Shown here piece after piece: positions 22,177 to 53,779 of a stretch of DNA of 64,000 bases (within the stretch, counting starts at the first letter, position 1; every line of letters begins with the position of its first letter). The stretch lies in NCBI GenBank assembly GCA_031382175.1, contig JANMYO010000048.1, positions 31,927 through 95,926 on the forward strand. Direction: 5' to 3'. Made by a program: the position numbers and the translations under genes. The notes under the pieces were generated by a model. That model saw only the letters and a program-made list of their open reading frames with translations, had not been told where the DNA came from and did no database searches. Source of the DNA: Bacteroidia bacterium (GTDB taxonomy: Bacteria; Bacteroidota; Bacteroidia; Cytophagales; Cyclobacteriaceae).

Positions 22177-22471
<295 letters not shown>

Positions 22472-23560
22472 CAAAGAAAAGGGTAGGGCGATCCTGAACA
22501 GGCTTGGTAAAAATTTGCAAGAGATAGCCCTCTTCGTCCCGGTCGATAAGGATGTTTTGCTTTTTCAATTGTTGAAAGTCTTCATTGATATGTCCCACCC
22601 GGTCAAGCACGTCTTCATAATACGTGTCGGGAACATAGAGGAACTCAACACCTCTTCTTCTCAACTCAGAAACGGTTTCAATGATATCATCTGTAGCGAT
22701 GGCGATATGTTGGACCCCCGGGCCCTTGTAAAAATCAAGGTATTCTTCGATCTGCGACTTCTTCTTCCCTTTGGCAGGCTCGTTGATCGGAAATTTAATA
22801 TAGCCATTCCCATTGGAAACAACTTTCGACATCAAGGCGCTATACTCAGTAGAGATATCCTTATCGTCAAAGGTGAGTAATAATTTAAAGCCCATCACCT
22901 GTTCGTAGAAATCCACCCATGTATTCATTTGCCCCAATTCTACATTGCCGACACAATGATCTACATATTTCAGACCGATGGGATTGGCCTTCAAATTATT
23001 TTTTACAGCCTTAAAACCAGGAAGAAAAATTCCTTTGTGATTTTTTCGTTCTACGAAAGTATGTAAAGTCTCTCCATATGTTTTTATGGAGGACACAACA
23101 ACTTCTCCGAATTCATCTTTCAGAGTTTTTGGCTCACTTGCAGCAACTGCGCCACGCAATGTAGTTTCTTTGAAGGAGTGGGCAGCATCATCAACCCACA
23201 GTGCCAGTACCTTCACGCCATCACCATGCTTTTTCACATGCTCACTAATTGGTGAATCAGGTACAAGGGAGCTGGTCAGGACAAAACGGATCTTGTTTTG
23301 TTGGATAACATAGGAGGCTTGGTTACGCACACCTGTTTCAGGACCCGCATACGCTACAAGTTCAAAACCAAAACAATGCTGGTAGAAGAGTGATGCCTGC
23401 TTGGCATTGCCCACATAGAATTCGATGTAATCGGTACCTTTCAAGGGTAAGAAATCCTGCTCCATGGTAGTTGGATTTTTAGAATTGTAAAATTACGTAT
23501 TCTGCTCTTTTTATTTTTAAAATACGCAGCATTTCTATAATCTTGACAAAAATTTAAGCT

Positions 23561-40530: not shown

Positions 40531-40652
40531 TGCTTATCCAGAAAGACTGAGGGACAGGGCCCGTTGAAGTCTTAGCAACCTCCCCGATAGCTATCGGGGT
40601 ACTTGGTGCTAACTCCCTTTTCTTCTGAACCATCAGGAGGAAGAAGATGAGC
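40531..40652 (+). promoter_or_regulatory. SAM-I (S-box) riboswitch aptamer upstream of the metH modules
   Basis: The aptamer reads tgCTTATCcAGAaAG.ctGAGGGAc.GGGCCCgtTGAAG.....GCAACC-[P3 hairpin ccccgatagctatcgggg]-..GGTGCtAAcTCC-[P4]-GAAGATGAG. P1 forms between CTTATC and GATGAG. A near-consensus -7 box, TAAGATTG, lies at 40510-40517. Confidence 0.85.
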
Positions 40653-40669
40653 GGCCATTCTCTAAGGCT

Positions 40670-40695: not shown

Positions 40696-41718
40696 ATGGG
40701 AAGAGTGAAAATACAAGATATTTTAAAAGAACGGATACTCGTGTTGGATGGGGCGATGGGCACTATGATCCAGCGTCATCCCCTCGAGGAAGCCGATTTC
40801 AGAGGCGAGCGATTCAAGGATCATAAATATCCATTGAAAGGGAATAATGATTTATTGTCGATTACGCGTCCTGACATCATCAAAGATATTCATCGTCAGT
40901 ATTTTGAGGCGGGGGCTGACATTGCTGAAACAAATACGTTTAGCGGGACCACTATTGCACAGGCAGACTACCACCTTGAAAGCCTGGCGTACGAACTAAA
41001 TTACCAATCGGCTAAGATTGCCAAAGAAGTTGCCGATGAGTTTACAAAAAGAGAGCCACGAAAACCTCGGTTTGTTGCCGGAGCTATGGGACCCACCAAC
41101 CGTACGCTTTCATTATCCCCTGATGTTAATAATCCCGGTTACCGTGCTATAACATTCGATGAACTTAAGGTGGCGTATAAGGAACAGGCTAAAGGCCTCA
41201 TCGATGGGGGTGCTGATCTTATTTTGGTAGAGACTATTTTTGATACACTGAATGCCAAAGCGTGCCTCTTTGCGATACAAGAACTTTACGAGGAGATCGG
41301 CAAAGAACTTCCCATCATGGTTTCTGGGACCATTACTGATGCAAGCGGCCGGACTCTTTCCGGACAAACTACTGATGCTTTTCTAATTTCAGTGTCTCAT
41401 GCTCCCCTGTTAAGTGTAGGGCTGAATTGTGCGTTGGGAGCCAAACAGTTGAGACCCTATTTGCAAATACTAAACGAACAAGCGCCATTCTTTGTCAGCG
41501 CTTATCCTAATGCAGGTTTGCCAAATGAGTTTGGTCATTATGATCAAAGTCCGGATGAAATGGCCGAGCAAATTGAAGAATTTTTAAAAGAAGGATTGGT
41601 CAATATCGTAGGCGGGTGCTGTGGCACAACTCCGGACCATATTAAGAAGATAGCTGAAGTGGTCGGCAGATATAAACCAAGATTGGTCCATGGTCAGCAG
41701 GCAATAGTCCATAGTTGA
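40696..41718 (+). CDS. Homocysteine S-methyltransferase domain protein (MetH N-terminal module as a separate polypeptide)
   Basis: [21 protein letters not shown], and GLNCALG and GGCCGTTP (zinc-ligand cysteines) are present. Confidence 0.9.
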
Positions 41719-41738
41719 TTAATAATAAAATTTGAGGT

Positions 41739-42092
41739 ATGGCATTTAAGTTTGAGAATTTGAAAGTATGGCAAAGTGCGGTGGAGTTATCCGGGCAGAT
41801 TTCTGAATTGACTAAGAAATTTCCTAAGGAGGAATTATTTATTTTAACATCACAACTCAAAAGGGCAACAGATTCAATCGCCTTGAATATTGCGGAAGGC
41901 TCTACGGGGCAGACCAATCCGGAGTTTAAGAAATTTTTAGGTTATGCCCTTCGATCAGCAATTGAAGTGGTGAGTTGTTTTTATCTAGCAAGGCGAAGAA
42001 ACTTGGTTAACGATCAGGAATTTGATCACTTCTATAACTATTTAACAACGCTTGTTAAAAGTATTCAGTCACTGCGTAATTCAATTCGCTAA
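41739..42092 (+). CDS. Four-helix-bundle protein (23S rRNA intervening-sequence protein / Avd family)
   Basis: The 117-aa protein has [13 protein letters not shown] and [16 protein letters not shown], hallmarks of the TIGR02436-type family. Its stop overlaps the next start (TAATG). Confidence 0.85.
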
Positions 42093-44791
42093 TGTACCAT
42101 CGACCATCAACCATCGACCATGGACCTTTAAAATTAAGCGGACTTGAATCCGTTGTGCTTACGCGCGAATCAAACTTTGTAAATATTGGCGAGCGAACCA
42201 ATGTAACAGGCTCTGCCCGGTTCTTAAAACTGATCAAGGAAGATAAGTTCGATGAGGCATTGGAGGTAGCACTCGATCAAGTCAGGGGAGGTGCACAGGT
42301 TATTGATGTCAACATGGACGAAGGGATGCTTGATTCTAAAGCGGCCATGGTGAAATACCTGAATCTTATGGCATCCGAACCAGAGATTTCAAGAATTCCC
42401 GTGATGATTGATTCTTCAAAGTGGGAAGTAATTGAGGAAGGCTTGAAGTGTCTGCAAGGAAAAGGCATCGTTAACTCCATCAGCATGAAAGGTGGAGTAG
42501 AGGAATTTAAACGTCAGGCTAAATTGGTGAAGCGCTATGGGGCAGCCACGGTAGTGATGGCCTTTGATGAAGATGGTCAGGCTGATACTTACCAGCGAAG
42601 AATTGATATCTGCAAAAGGGCGTATAATATATTGGTTAACGAAGTTCATTTTGCCCCACAGGACATAATTTTCGATCCAAATATTTTTCCCGTGGCCACA
42701 GGAATCGATGAACATAGAAATTATGCCTTGGATTTTTTTAAGGCGGCTAAGTGGATTCGGGAAAACCTTCCTCATGCGCACGTAAGTGGAGGCGTTAGTA
42801 ACGTCTCATTCAGCTTTAGGGGGAATCAGAAAGTACGCGAAGCGATGCATTCGGTTTTTCTCTATCATGCTATCCAGAACGGTATGGACATGGGCATTGT
42901 AAACCCTACGATGTTGGAGGTATACGATGAGATTCCTAAAGATCTTCTTGAACGAGTCGAAGATGTTTTGTTAAACAGGAGGGAAGATGCCACGGAAAGG
43001 CTTCTGGAATTTGCCGAGACCGTAAAGGGTTCAGCAAAGAAGAAAGAGGTTGATGATGAATGGAGAAACGGGTCGGTGGAGGATAGAATAACCCATGCCT
43101 TGGTAAAAGGTATCATTGATTTTGTCGATGCCGATACAGAAGAAGCTCGTTTAAAGTATGGCAAGCCGTTGAACGTCATTGAAGGTCCATTGATGGCCGG
43201 GATGAACGTGGTCGGAGATTTATTTGGAGCGGGTAAAATGTTTTTGCCACAAGTGGTGAAGAGTGCTCGCGTTATGAAAAAATCAGTTGCTTATCTCACG
43301 CCTTTTTTGGAGGAAGAAAAAAGGCAAACAGGGAACACGGGCCAGGTGGCTCCTAAGATTTTATTAGCGACCGTAAAGGGAGATGTGCATGACATTGGAA
43401 AGAATATAGTAGGCGTTGTGTTGGCCTGCAACAACTACGATGTGATTGACTTGGGTGTTATGGTTCCAGCTGAGAAAATCCTGGAAGCGGCCAGACGTGA
43501 AAAAGTAGATGTGATTGGTTTAAGTGGATTGATTACTCCTTCCCTGGATGAGATGGTGCATTTTGCCAAAGAGATGGAGCGGGAGAAAATGACGTTACCG
43601 CTGTTGATAGGAGGGGCCACCACTTCACGGATACATACGGCTGTTAAGATCGATCCTGTTTATTCGGGTCCAGTCGTCCATGTCTTGGATGCATCACGTT
43701 CTGTTCCGGTAGCCAGCGAATTGATTAATCCCAAGACCCGAGGCGACTTCCAAACAAAGATGAAGTTGGAGTATACCAATATGAGGAAGGACCATGAGAA
43801 CAGGCAGCAGTTGAAAAATTATATCCCTTTAGTCGAGGCTCGGAAGAATAAAGTAAAAATCGATTGGGATAAATTTGAACCGCACAGACCTACCTTTCTG
43901 GGTAAGAAGATTTTGCTTGACTTCCCTCTTGCAGAGATCAGTAAATTCATCGATTGGACTCCGTTTTTCCAAACGTGGATGTTGGCCGGTCGTTATCCGG
44001 CTATTCTTGAAGACGCTGTCGTAGGTGTTGAGGCAAAAAAACTTTTTGCTGATGCACAGGTTATGCTTAAGAAGATTATCAGTGAAAACAGGTTGCATGC
44101 GAATGGTGTATTTGCCTTTTATCGGGCCAACACCAATGATAAAGATGACGTTATTCTTTATCAAAATGGAAAGGAATTTAGAAAACTTCATTTCTTACGT
44201 CAGCAAAATAAGAAGGCTCAAAATCTTCCAAACTTCTGCCTGTCAGATTTCATTGCGCCAACCTCAAGCGGTAAACAAGATTACATTGGCATGTTTGCCG
44301 TAACAGCAGGAGTGGGGATTGAGAAAATTTTAGAGGAGTTTAAGGCTCAGCATGATGACTATTCGGATATCATGGTAAAGGCCTTGGCAGATCGCCTGGC
44401 CGAAGCCTTTGCGGAATGCTTGCATGCAAAAGTGAGAAGAGAATACTGGGGATATGCTTCCCATGAGGCCTTAAGTAATGAGCAAATGATTCACGAGGAG
44501 TATGATGGTATCCGGCCAGCACCCGGTTACCCGGCTTGCCCTGATCACACAGAGAAGCAAACTATATTTGAATTGTTGGATGCTGAAAAAGAGGCAGGGA
44601 TCATGTTAACAGAATCTTTTGCCATGTATCCGGCCTCATCGGTTAGCGGATATTACTTTTCTAACTCAGCGTCAAAGTATTTTGGATTAGGCAACATTGA
44701 TAAAGATCAAGTCATTGAATATGCAACTCGAAAGGAAAAACCGGTAGCGGAAATGGAAAAATGGCTTTCGCCAAATTTATCCTACAATTGA
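42092..44791 (+). CDS. metH: Methionine synthase MetH, pterin-binding + B12-cap + B12-binding + AdoMet-activation modules
   Basis: LKLSGLE.....[13 protein letters not shown] marks the start of the pterin domain. [11 protein letters not shown] is the DxHxxG B12 ligand loop, and the C-terminal reactivation domain is present. Confidence 0.93.
42097..42124 (+). repeat. Four phase-locked 7-nt units at the 5-prime end of the metH ORF
   Basis: ccatcga ccatcaa ccatcga ccatgga encodes the non-conserved HRPSTIDHG linker that precedes the canonical LKLSGLE. Confidence 0.7.
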
Positions 44792-44900: not shown

Positions 44901-45857
44901 ATGAAAGTAACAGAACACATAAAGAACGCCAACGGCAAAACGCTTTTCAGCATCGAAATTCTTCCTCCCTTAAAAGGAGAGAATATCCGTACACTGTTTG
45001 ATAATATGGACCCATTGATGGAGTTTAAACCTCCGTTTATTGACGTTACCTATCATCGGGAGGAGTATGTTTATAAGAAGAAGGATAATGGACTTTTAGA
45101 AAAGCGATCCACCCGTAAGCGCCCAGGGACGGTAGGAATATGTGCAGCCATTCAAAATCATTACAAGGTAGATACCGTGCCTCATATTATCTGCGGGGGT
45201 TTTAGTAAGGAAGAAACAGAGAATGCCCTTATTGACTTACAATTTTTGGGAATAGATAATGTGCTGGCATTGCAGGGAGATGCAATTAAAAGTGAAGCGC
45301 GCTTTGTTGCTGAACCGGATGGGCATAAATATGCTTCTGAATTACTAGGCCAAATCGTGGCCATGAATAACGGAAAGTTCATTGAAGAAGAATTGCAACA
45401 TCCCAATCCTACCAATTTTTGTGTGGGCGTGGCAGCTTATCCTGAAAAGCACTTTTCTTCCCCTAACCTAAAGACGGATATCAAATACCTGAAGCATAAA
45501 GTAGATTTAGGAGCAGAGTATATCGTAACACAAATGTTTTTTAATAACGAGAGGTATTTCGAATTTGTGAAACTCTGCAGAGAGAATGATATTCATATCC
45601 CTATCATTCCGGGAATCAAGCCAATCACTGCAAAAGTTCAGACGACAGTGCTTCCTACCATATTTCACATTGATCTGCCTGATGAGTTGGCGGATGAAAT
45701 AGAGAAGTGTAAAGACAATACCGCTGTAAAGCAGGTGGGAATTGAATGGACCATAAGACAATCAAAAGAGTTGATGAAGTTTGGTGTGCCCACGTTGCAT
45801 TATTACTCGATGGGTAAATCTGATCCAATTTATAAGATTGCGAGAGAGTTATTTTAG
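44901..45857 (+). CDS. metF: Methylenetetrahydrofolate reductase
   Basis: FSIEILPP, DVTYH and TQMFFN motifs are present, and the gene lies in the met operon. Confidence 0.9.
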   Translation: MKVTEHIKNANGKTLFSIEILPPLKGENIRTLFDNMDPLMEFKPPFIDVTYHREEYVYKKKDNGLLEKRSTRKRPGTVGICAAIQNHYKVDTVPHIICGGFSKEETENALIDLQFLGIDNVLALQGDAIKSEARFVAEPDGHKYASELLGQIVAMNNGKFIEEELQHPNPTNFCVGVAAYPEKHFSSPNLKTDIKYLKHKVDLGAEYIVTQMFFNNERYFEFVKLCRENDIHIPIIPGIKPITAKVQTTVLPTIFHIDLPDELADEIEKCKDNTAVKQVGIEWTIRQSKELMKFGVPTLHYYSMGKSDPIYKIARELF

Positions 45858-52001: not shown

Positions 52002-52658
52002 TTATAAAAGCATCTCAGGCACATCATTTTCAGCAATTAACTTTCCGGCAGTCGCATTTTTTATTTGCTCAACTGAAATACCCGGTGCTCTTTCAAGGAG
52101 TTTGAATCCTCCTGTCGGTAGCACATCCAACACCGCCATATCGGAAACAATCCTTCTTACACACCTTAATCCGGTGATGGGTAAGGTGCATTCTTTAAGA
52201 AGCTTAGAAGCACCTTCCTTACTGCAATGCTGCATGGCAACGATAATGTGCTTAGCCGAAGCTACTAAGTCCATAGCGCCTCCCATTCCTTTCACCATTT
52301 TACCAGGCACTTTCCAATTGGCAATGTCACCGTTCTCAGACACTTCCATCGCGCCAAGAATCGTTAAGTCAACTTTGCCGCTGCGGATCATTCCAAAACT
52401 TTCAGCTGAACTAAATAAGGCGGAGCCGGGCATCATGGTGATAGTTTGCTTTCCGGCATTGATTAAATCGGGATCAACGTTTTCTTCCTTGGGAAAAGGA
52501 CCGATTCCCAGCAATCCATTTTCAGATTGCAATACGACATCTATATTTTTAGGAATGTAATTGGCTACCAGCGTAGGGATTCCAATGCCAAGATTGATGT
52601 ACATCCCATCTTTTACTTCCTGCGCTATTCGCTTTGCGATTCCTATTTTATCTAACAT
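52002..52658 (-). CDS. scoB: 3-oxoacid CoA-transferase subunit B
   Basis: It has the SENG catalytic-Glu motif (QSENGLLG) and GMGGAMDL. Confidence 0.9.
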   Translation of the reverse strand: MLDKIGIAKRIAQEVKDGMYINLGIGIPTLVANYIPKNIDVVLQSENGLLGIGPFPKEENVDPDLINAGKQTITMMPGSALFSSAESFGMIRSGKVDLTILGAMEVSENGDIANWKVPGKMVKGMGGAMDLVASAKHIIVAMQHCSKEGASKLLKECTLPITGLRCVRRIVSDMAVLDVLPTGGFKLLERAPGISVEQIKNATAGKLIAENDVPEMLL

Positions 52659-52677
52659 AAATTGATTTGAAGATTAG

Positions 52678-52695
52678 CTGATTTGAAAATTTGAG
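52678..52695. repeat. Left arm of the perfect 18-bp inverted repeat bracketing the four-helix-bundle gene
   Basis: gctgatttgaaaatttga is the exact reverse complement of 53057-53074. Confidence 0.95.
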
Positions 52696-52697
52696 GA

Positions 52698-53045
52698 TTA
52701 AACTTTAGAGGAGCTAATTATCTTTGAAATTATGCGAATGATACTCCGTAATTCTTCTAACATTAATTCCGGATTAGCGTAATGCTCTGATTCTTTACAA
52801 AGCAAAAGCCAATATTCCGTTTCGTCCGCCTCTTTCGCGGCTATTTTGAATTTATGAATGAAATCTGCTTTGCTCTCAGCATTCTGCGCTTCTCTTACAT
52901 TGGCACCAATTGAAGTTCCTGATTTCAACAATTGTCTGGCGAGTACATATTTTTTGCTGCTTTCAAGCTTCTCGCAAAAATCGAGAATAGCAAGAGAGAA
53001 TTTAAAAGTAAGGTCAACAATTAGATTGTCCTTGTCATTCCTCAT
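52698..53045 (-). CDS. Four-helix-bundle protein (23S rRNA intervening-sequence protein / Avd family)
   Basis: LLKSGTSIGANVREAQ and KEADETEYWL motifs are present. I use the ATG at 53045; the track ORF begins at a TTG at 53060 that lies inside the inverted repeat. Confidence 0.85.
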   Translation of the reverse strand: MRNDKDNLIVDLTFKFSLAILDFCEKLESSKKYVLARQLLKSGTSIGANVREAQNAESKADFIHKFKIAAKEADETEYWLLLCKESEHYANPELMLEELRSIIRIISKIISSSKV

Positions 53046-53056
53046 CACTGATATTT

Positions 53057-53074
53057 TCAAATTTTCAAATCAGC
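53057..53074. repeat. Right arm of the perfect 18-bp inverted repeat
   Basis: tcaaattttcaaatcagc is embedded in an 8-nt-periodic array (atattttc aaattttc aaatcagc atattttc aaattttt) spanning 53051-53090. Confidence 0.95.
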
Positions 53075-53080
53075 ATATTT

Positions 53081-53779
53081 TCAAATTTTTGAAATAGTTC
53101 TTTGTTCAATCCTCTTTTCATAATTTTCGCCTTGAAAAATCCGATGAACATAGATTCCGGGTGTGTGAATCATGTTGGGATCAAGCTGCCCTACCTGAAC
53201 AAGTTCTTCTACCTCGGCAATGGTAATCGTTCCGGCTGAGGCCATCATCGGGTTAAAGTTACGCGCGGTGCCTTTGTAAATTAAGTTCCCTGTCGTATCT
53301 CCCTTCCATGCCTTAACGATTGAAAAATCAGCCCTCAACCACTTCTCCATCAGGTAAATTTTTCCTTCAAAAGTTCTTGTCTCTTTCCCTTCAGCGACCT
53401 CTGTACCGACACCGGCAGGAGTGAAGAAGGCCGGTATCCCTGCACCTCCGGCTCGCACTCGTTCTGCCAGCGTGCCTTGCGGAATCAATTCCACTTCCAA
53501 TTCACCAGAGAGTAATTGTCTTTCAAATTCGGCATTTTCTCCTACGTAAGAAGAGATCATCTTTTTTACCTGACGTGTTTTAAGCAAAAGACCAATACCG
53601 AAGTCATCTACACCTGCGTTATTTGAAATGCAGGTTAAACCTTTGATGCCCCTTCGCAATAGTGCCGAAATACAATTCTCAGGAATACCACATAGCCCAA
53701 ATCCGCCAAGCATCATCGTGACGTTATCTGGAATGTCTTTGACCGCTTCATCAGCATCTTTCACTACTTTATTAATCAT
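53081..53779 (-). CDS. scoA: 3-oxoacid CoA-transferase subunit A
   Basis: [22 protein letters not shown] and [11 protein letters not shown] motifs are present. Confidence 0.9.

Follow-up and report, generated by a model that had tools for sequence, protein, structure and literature searches.

A four-helix-bundle gene between inverted heptamer arrays at the junction of a split metH, a probable member of a cassette family in housekeeping operons of Bacteroidota

How does a gene for a small four-helix-bundle (4HB) protein come to lie exactly between the two parts of metH, and is the gene by itself the unit that is found there? The question is raised by a 64,000-nucleotide (nt) stretch of DNA, hereafter the window, of a Bacteroidia bacterium of the family Cyclobacteriaceae (assembly GCA_031382175.1, contig JANMYO010000048.1, positions 31,927 to 95,926 of the forward strand), in which the homocysteine-binding (Hcy) module of MetH and its pterin/B12/activation modules are encoded by two open reading frames (ORFs) that are separated by a PF05635 gene of 117 amino acids (aa). 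We propose that this 4HB gene and the inverted arrays of 7-nt units on its two sides are probably one promoter-less cassette and that it belongs to a large family in Bacteroidota, apparently not described so far, whose members sit in the junctions of housekeeping operons. The features of the locus are as follows.

40531-40653, + strand: S-adenosylmethionine (SAM) riboswitch in the operon leader (Rfam RF00162, 68.6 bits; gathering score 44.4)
40696-41718, + strand: metH ORF for the Hcy module, 340 aa (PF02574, 344.7 bits)
41683-41714, + strand: left arm, a decayed array of GTCCATR-type 7-nt units that holds the 11-bp repeat arm 41685-41695
41739-42092, + strand: the 117-aa 4HB gene (PF05635, 110.4 bits; TIGR02436, 104.8 bits)
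42092-44791, + strand: metH ORF for the pterin/B12/activation modules, 899 aa (Pterin_bind, B12-binding_2, B12-binding and Met_synt_B12), hereafter the large ORF
42097-42128, + strand: right arm, the 7-nt units CCATCGA, CCATCAA, CCATCGA and CCATGGA, reverse complement of the left-arm type
44901-45857, + strand: metF, the next gene of the operon, for methylenetetrahydrofolate reductase (PF02219, 222 bits)

The sequence GGTCCATGGTC is found exactly once per strand, at 41685-41695 (+) and 42116-42126 (-), on either side of the 4HB gene. The inverted-repeat (IR) score of the locus, defined as the best ungapped inverted match between the 130-nt flanks, is 11, which is higher than in all 20 flank shuffles (maximum 8) and than the 95th percentile of the same-locus controls (9). 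TRF reports a repeat of period 7 with 4.4 copies of ACCATCG at 42096-42126, and the motif CCATSGACYAT, with one mismatch allowed, has eight matches in the 64 kb against 3.2 expected, six of which are at the metH cassette: four of them forward, all in the right flank, and two in reverse orientation in the left flank (41683-41693 and 41704-41714). Because such units are found on both flanks, the 11-bp repeat is what remains of two inverted arrays. At three close relatives (L166, L167 and L170), the left arm consists of four clean units at the same place. When 41670-42140 is folded as RNA, both the minimum free energy (MFE) structure and the centroid structure close the cassette by the 11-bp stem.

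Both arms also belong to the coding sequences of the neighbouring ORFs. The left arm encodes the last ~11 codons and the stop codon of the Hcy ORF, following a conserved KPR, and the tail beyond KPR is not conserved in relatives. The right arm corresponds to residues 3-12 of the large ORF, in which residues 1-12 are not conserved and with which most relatives align only from residue 13, at LKLSGLE. The ATG at 42092 is the only start codon that retains this conserved LKLSGLE, so the right arm must be translated. The 4HB gene follows the Hcy ORF after 20 nt, and its stop codon overlaps the start of the large ORF in the TAATG at 42090-42094. On the full-length MetH model NF007024 (1234 positions), the Hcy ORF covers positions 11-339 and the large ORF positions 344-1232 (1528 bits), which places the break exactly in the linker between the Hcy and pterin modules; by NF007024 and Pfam, all MetH modules are present and complete across the two ORFs. 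The neighbours of this stretch include ppx and metF, and riboswitch, Hcy ORF, 4HB gene, large ORF and metF together read as one tightly packed operon. A first-pass annotation of this DNA had put the two groups of MetH modules on separate ORFs with the 117-aa 4HB gene between them, the stop of this gene overlapping the downstream start, had noted an 11-bp inverted repeat around the insert, and had taken the segment HRPSTIDHG of the large ORF to be non-conserved and coded by four 7-nt units. The domain matches with the NF007024 coverage, the PF05635 match, the position of TAATG, the excess of the repeat over shuffles and controls, and the TRF result with the alignments of relatives agree with each of these statements.

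The 117-aa protein scores well above the curated cutoffs of PF05635 (33.8 bits) and TIGR02436 (24 bits), and an NCBIfam scan of the 4HB protein matched only TIGR02436 and two PRK12275 subfamilies. Its AF2 model, built as a monomer, consists of four helices (pLDDT 77), for which Foldseek gives TM scores of 0.86-0.89 to 2GSC and 0.83-0.88 to 2RLD; the sequence itself finds 2GSC with phmmer at an E-value of 1.8e-12. The model is also similar to chain B of 8UB7, the Avd protein in the ribonucleoprotein of a diversity-generating retroelement (DGR), with a TM score of 0.79 at 5% identity. Homopentamers have been reported for both 2GSC and Avd (PMC4990558; bioRxiv 10.1101/2023.10.23.563531). The 4HB protein has no recognisable nuclease fold or motif. 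Its invariant polar residues include Q39, S46, N50, E53 and E76, within the motif SIxxNIAEG, and dN/dS values of 0.03-0.08 between pairs of subfamily members indicate strong purifying selection on the protein. At 90% identity, the subfamily falls into at least 3,937 clusters, and PF05635/TIGR02436 as a whole holds thousands of proteins, with two crystal structures and no known function.

The same architecture is found a second time in the window, and a lone array of its arm type at a further place.

52665-53086, - strand: second cassette, with arms at 52665-52694 and 53057-53086
52698-53060, - strand: the 120-aa 4HB gene of the second cassette (PF05635, 79 bits)
1941-1979, + strand: solo array of four 8-nt units of the arm type of the second cassette, with a shared exact 15-mer

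The second cassette lies between the genes for the two subunits of a CoA-transferase (53081-53779 and 52002-52658, PF01144). Its inverted repeat is 30 nt long, 90% complementary and made of 8-nt units, and its arms close both the MFE and the centroid fold (z = -2.45). The exact 15-mer TCAAATTTTCAAATC is found in the solo array and in both arms of the second cassette (six matches against 0.75 expected). No partner arm, 4HB gene or ORF is found near the solo array, which may be the remnant of a cassette or an independent array. The first-pass annotation had also pointed to an 11-mer, AAAATTTGAGG, which is located immediately upstream of the 4HB start in the metH cassette, as shared by the two cassettes; the second copy exists, at 52686-52696 and not at 52687-52697. 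The two exact copies compare with 0.18 expected from shuffles for an 11-mer that was picked post hoc, and with one mismatch allowed its count is at chance level. Relative to the gene, the 11-mer is upstream and in sense in the metH cassette, downstream and in antisense in the second one, and similar strings are found in related 4HB genes, within the part that encodes FENLR near the N-terminus. With its post hoc choice and its chance-level count with a mismatch, AAAATTTGAGG is weak evidence for a common cassette end and not a convincing one.

Is this arrangement peculiar to the window? A metagenome scan with an alignment of five sequences of the window's subfamily found 80 further loci, whose proteins are 56-73% identical; as the scan was built on one subfamily, the family-wide statistics apply to that subfamily. 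At nearly all these loci, the units upstream of the 4HB gene are AGTCCATA, GTCGATA, GTCCACA or AGTCCGAA(A) and those downstream are their reverse complements, the arrays usually consist of 2-5 units, and the orientation of the arms relative to the gene is polar by 8-10:1. The median IR score is 14 for the cassettes and 7 for the controls, which were 248 positions from the same loci (Mann-Whitney p = 5e-31), and of the 70 cassettes with full flanks, 81% score above the 95th percentile of the controls. The ungapped IR score was more informative than RNAduplex with wide windows, which gave diffuse structures and, for some loci, weak z values. Among the 60 cassettes for which both neighbours are visible, 45 are located between genes that are co-oriented with them, and the downstream gene often starts at, or overlaps, the 4HB stop codon (ATGA or TAATG). 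Recurrent sites are the aguB-aguA junction (12-13 loci), the split metH (9 loci) and the side of recR (6-8 loci), and cassettes are also found at many single sites. The two arm types, with 8-nt TTYCGGAC and 7-nt YRTSGAC units, follow the clades of the 4HB protein; the sites are intermixed within these clades, and both arm types are present at the agu site.

The arms also differ in their stop codons. In 59 cassettes with clear arms, the sense strand holds 77 stop triplets in the left arms and 28 in the right arms, which are of equal total length, and 40 of the 59 right arms are open in all three frames, compared with 19 of the 59 left arms (p = 6e-5). This asymmetry fits a design or a selection filter in which the upstream ORF ends within the left arm and the downstream ORF is free to start ahead of the right arm or inside it, by which polar damage is avoided.

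Several comparisons indicate what the unit is that has been gained, lost, flipped and moved. The cassettes of L120, at an aguB-aguA junction, and L136, at the side of recR, are 76% identical in nucleotide sequence over gene plus arms only, and the similarity between cassettes at unrelated sites generally stops at the outer edges of the arms. As judged from these alignments, the terminal inverted arrays move with the element. L148 and L149 share both neighbours, which are a DUF5686 gene and a rhodanese/UPF0176 gene, with a cassette of ~470 nt in opposite orientation between them, and the breakpoints of their alignment are inside the arms. Unrelated 4HB subfamilies occupy the same metH junction. 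Taken with the patchy distribution at metH and with a deletion remnant described below, the unrelated sites and the inversion show one mobile unit that consists of gene and arms. The proposal of the first-pass annotation that the gene had arrived as an inserted cassette is supported by the same arm architecture around related 4HB genes at many unrelated sites.

Did the cassette split metH, or did it enter a gene that was already split? When genomes were scanned with residues 1-350 of the large ORF, 80 loci were found in Cytophagales, Flavobacteriales and relatives, of which the 73 that hold both modules are the basis of the following counts. MetH is fused at 13 of them and split at 60, and most of the split loci have spacers of 4-40 nt and no insert. 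A PF05635 gene is located at the exact Hcy/pterin junction in nine of the 60 split loci, and a tenth such gene, in L048, lies at a contig end. At nine other metH-junction cassettes the unit sequences differ (CCAACAA, GCCAGNA, CCCCAAT, GTCGACA and others), and the complementarity between left and right arms is kept despite these differences. The RF00162 riboswitch is also found upstream of six other cassette-bearing metH loci. In the MetH tree, the insert-bearing loci are on scattered tips, each beside an insert-free relative, fused and split forms interleave, and in the window's own clade metH is split in all nine members.

In the closest relative, L001 (91% identical), the 4HB ORF is reduced to its final ~45 nt, which are followed by an ATG and right-arm units that encode the head MSNQPSTIDHRPLQLSGLE; the junction of L001 is, as this comparison has it, an internal-deletion remnant of the cassette. 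An arm-encoded head of the form M-Y/N/S-x-R-P-S-T-I-D-H-R/G-P is limited to loci with a cassette or a remnant, and two other split loci, L033 and L060, have the conserved and non-repetitive head MADSDCKKYL. The nearest public 4HB proteins, 82-99% identical, are all found at the same junction in ppk-ppx-metH synteny, and the nearest relatives carry cleaner, four-unit arms than the window. These same-junction relatives and the L001 remnant suggest that the cassette is old in this lineage, with vertical inheritance and at least one loss. Most likely, metH was already split before the cassette was inserted. Of the two courses that the first-pass annotation had left side by side, the use of a pre-existing split is thus favoured over the splitting of a fused metH by the insertion, as the nine closest relatives and 60 of the 73 loci are split and as the closest 4HB relatives (82-88% identical) share both the junction and its synteny. 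Its derivation of the new linker codons from the end of the cassette holds, because the arm-encoded head is confined to cassette and remnant loci; accordingly, no conservation of this N-terminal linker is seen apart from the insert, and with a 4HB gene in nine of 60 split loci, the spacer gene is far from universal in split metH.

Other genes are found at the metH junction as well. L023 has a gene for a GxxExxY protein (TIGR04256), L008 a YhcG gene for a PDDEXK nuclease, L018 (3395-3835) and L019 (3523-3978) a QueF-like gene that scores below the TIGR03139 cutoff, and L036 an ORF of 169 aa with an N-terminus like a signal peptide with lipobox and with no Pfam or NCBIfam match. In L019 the QueF-like gene lies downstream of a 4HB gene, with a second heptamer array on its far side. 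Besides a long inverted repeat of its own, the GxxExxY cassette of L023 (3415-3939) has a GCCAAAG/GCTAACA array after it that is similar to the right arm in the sister locus L026 (3434-4001), which carries a 4HB cassette; this points to the replacement of one cassette by another at this site.

Further observations were made around metH. The insert-free spacer of the split metH of L007 (3815-4001) is full of 7-nt arrays (TTCAAAG/TTTAAAG, ACCCAAT/GACTAAT and GAAGTAA). A further PF05635 gene is located just downstream of metH, ahead of the following gene, in L001 (6994-7227), L002 (6750-7148), L005 (6773-6988) and L019 (6763-7131), two of the four being truncated (71-77 aa). The metH spacers of L004 and L008 contain a hairpin of the form AATTTGGCAGACAGTGTCTGCCAAATT, which may be another small palindromic element. 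No Hcy module is found within 4 kb upstream of the large ORF in L010, L014 and L076 (two Fulvivirga and one other), in which the parts of metH appear to be unlinked. An apparent second split point in the large ORF of L023, L034 and L050 is instead an in-frame insertion of ~140 aa within a single ORF (L023 5138-5616, L034 5230-5645 and L050 5200-5624, all Flavobacteriales); it lies near residue 412-420, between the B12-cap and B12-binding regions, in proteins of 1043-1047 aa. L059 also showed an apparent second split point.

A number of results weigh against reading gene and arms as one mobile cassette. No transposase, integrase or reverse transcriptase is encoded in or beside the cassette, and no target-site duplication is visible in five occupied/empty pairs, whose linkers are too diverged for boundaries to be placed. 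The MetH and 4HB trees are neighbour-joining trees without support values, and the cassettes share ancestry, so the counts of loci are not independent. The fold energy of the whole metH-cassette region is ordinary (z = -1.33), its arms having decayed to the 11-bp stem, and the arm mismatches of the family, 46 G.U and 48 A.C, carry no RNA-specific signal of selection on a stem. The co-variation of arm type with 4HB clade could be plain co-inheritance, and the binding of the arms by the protein is purely inferred.

A possible but doubtful alternative is that the arms act mainly in RNA, in which the stem would be cut by RNase III, thereby freeing the 4HB message and splitting the operon transcript, and DNA-level events would be by-products of the inverted repeats. 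In rRNA, family members do have complementary sequences at their borders, and RNase III excises them (PMC4990558); both cassettes in the window are closed by their arms in the MFE and the centroid fold, and the complementarity of left and right arms is maintained although the units differ between cassettes. However, the mismatches have no bias of G.U over A.C, ribosomes on the Hcy ORF and the large ORF of the window cross both arms and would melt the stem, and none of the 40 related loci scanned is in rRNA; this alternative also leaves the related cassettes at unrelated sites unexplained. It seems quite unlikely that the cassette itself split a fused metH in the linker, the left arm giving stops and the right arm with its overlapping ATG a coupled restart, and that the insert-free splits are scars of lost cassettes. 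The arms do provide stop, start and linker codons, left arms are rich in stops and right arms open in frame, L001 illustrates the loss of a cassette that leaves a split gene with an arm-encoded head, and the interleaving of fused and split forms hints at repeated fission at one linker. Against this, no cassette-bearing locus has a fused nearest relative, the nine relatives in the window's clade are all split, most split loci are short-spaced with conserved and non-repetitive heads such as the MADSDCKKYL of L033 and L060, most of the other sites join genes that are never fused (aguB-aguA, scoA-scoB), and the interleaving comes from the unsupported neighbour-joining tree of MetH.

That the 4HB gene is a domesticated, immobile member of the operon, for example a factor for assembly or regulation of MetH, with the arms as a local regulatory structure, would accord with the strong purifying selection on the protein, with its tight packing and translational coupling and with the location of its closest relatives, all at the same junction and in the same synteny; we consider it very unlikely, because most split metH loci lack a 4HB gene, the closest relative of the window has deleted it, the same subfamily is found at aguB-aguA, at recR and at dozens of unrelated junctions, and unrelated 4HB subfamilies as well as GxxExxY and YhcG genes share the metH junction. 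An extreme improbability is an Avd accessory protein of a DGR, despite the likeness of fold to 8UB7 chain B (TM 0.79) and despite PF05635 being the Pfam family that picks up Avd-like proteins (PMC10053308): the gene is flanked by metH modules, which leave no space for a reverse transcriptase or a pair of template and variable repeats, its NCBIfam matches are restricted to TIGR02436 and two PRK12275 subfamilies, and its identity to the Avd chain is 5%. A DGR at the metH locus is ruled out by the gene content, and no long direct repeat is present around the 4HB gene.

Based on the reading of gene and arms as one cassette, we propose that the cassette probably arrived at the junction when metH was already split and was then passed on vertically. 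The three ORFs would be on one mRNA under control of the SAM riboswitch and translationally coupled, so that the cassette would ride on the expression of the host operon without polar damage. In DNA, the arms may be determinants of recombination or mobility, the moving enzyme being one that the cassette does not encode; in the transcript, they may pair to enclose the 4HB ORF in a panhandle like that of the intervening sequences of 23S rRNA, and a ring-forming 4HB protein might bind the repeated arm units for the maintenance or movement of its own element. The DNA-level role, the panhandle and the binding of the arms are drawn by analogy from rRNA intervening sequences, from Avd and from nuclease-type genes that share sites. 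An extension of this scheme would make 4HB cassettes an uncharacterised class of mobile element. The ring protein would read the arm units one subunit each and, much like Avd, to which it is structurally related, would recruit a polymerase or recombinase from the host or in trans by which the cassette is copied or moved. Arms with stops on the left and with open frames and an ATG on the right would suit operon junctions and inter-domain linkers alike, and cassettes would then have caused gene fission repeatedly, metH being one case. This extension is in our judgement unlikely.

The closest known relative of the cassette is the intervening sequence (IVS) of 23S rRNA with a PF05635 ('S23p') ORF, found in Leptospira and Coxiella, which has the same protein family in its loop (PMC4990558). 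Such IVSs are sporadic, are regarded as selfish and are sited where an extra stem-loop is tolerated (PMC4990558), and they are closed by a stem of complementary borders, to which the 11-bp exact repeat of the metH cassette, the 30-nt repeat of the second cassette and the arms across the family correspond. Yet the metH cassette lacks the defining residence in rRNA, being located in a protein-coding operon, and Rfam matched no rRNA in the window or among 40 related cassette loci, at which SAM riboswitches were the only matches. The arms of the cassette differ from IVS borders in being tandem arrays of 7-8-nt units that are translated as the neighbours' tail and head. The Coxiella ORF is decaying and apparently untranslated (PMC4990558), whereas purifying selection on the 4HB subfamily of the window is strong.

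The cassette also shares features with other elements. Like free-standing homing endonuclease genes, it is a small single ORF that is placed in tight junctions of conserved operons and is patchy among close relatives, and different selfish genes with nuclease folds, GxxExxY and YhcG PDDEXK, are found at the same metH junction; PF05635 ORFs in turn share rRNA insertion sites with LAGLIDADG and GIY-YIG homing endonuclease genes. However, the 4HB protein is without a recognisable nuclease fold, and inverted repeat arms are untypical of free-standing homing genes. Avd is similar in its four-helix-bundle subunit (TM 0.79 to 8UB7 chain B) and is a barrel of five subunits, which binds to a structured RNA element and has been compared with S23 proteins (bioRxiv 10.1101/2023.10.23.563531), but no reverse transcriptase, template repeat or variable repeat is found near the 4HB gene, and the identity is 5%. 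With miniature inverted-repeat transposable elements (MITEs) and integron cassettes it has in common the terminal inverted sequences, the lack of a mobility enzyme of its own, a promoter-less ORF on host transcription and inversion or recombination at its ends. Its arms, in contrast, are short tandem units and not a unique terminal repeat or attC; no target-site duplication is seen in the occupied/empty pairs, whose linkers are too diverged to show boundaries; and 4HB cassettes differ from integron cassettes by their architecture, single in operons rather than in integrase arrays, no search having been aimed at attC or IntI. TAACTGA/STRR (short tandemly repeated repetitive) heptamer arrays of Beggiatoaceae, Cyanobacteria and Bacteroidetes are likewise tandem 7-nt units at the starts and ends of genes (PMC4679880); their origin has not been explained, and they are suspected of spreading horizontally (PMC4679880). 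These arrays are direct and of other units, and PMC4679880 mentions no inverted pairing, PF05635, S23, IVS or four-helix protein. No paper was found that links PF05635 genes to flanking arrays or operon junctions, although coverage of subscription journals was thin and a prior description is possible.

Other repeats are present elsewhere in the window. An exact 18-nt palindrome, CCCCGATAGCTATCGGGG, is found at 2187-2204 and 40582-40599, where no copy pair is expected. One copy is inside the SAM riboswitch match, and the other is in a gene-free region of 700 nt that also carries two copies of GCAATCCCMTAATGTTG; CCCCGATAGCTATCGGGG may be a small palindromic repeat element that was inserted in a loop of the riboswitch. 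At 22177-22472, a unit of 150 nt is present in two tandem copies with 93% identity, which overlap the 3' end of the minus-strand ORF 22371-23465 and each open with the hairpin CCATGGTCTGTG...CACAGACCA.

What is new in these results is that PF05635 genes outside rRNA come as discrete cassettes with inverted tandem-repeat arms, of which the metH case is one well-documented instance in a large and coherent family. The cassettes give the PF05635 family a testable biology, namely arm binding, RNA processing and mobility, and tie together rRNA intervening sequences, Avd-like proteins and the heptamer arrays of Bacteroidota and Cyanobacteria. The element also accounts for odd, repetitive extensions at the N- and C-termini of the housekeeping proteins beside it, which is a warning for annotators. 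If cassettes can split genes at linkers, they would provide a mechanism of gene fission.

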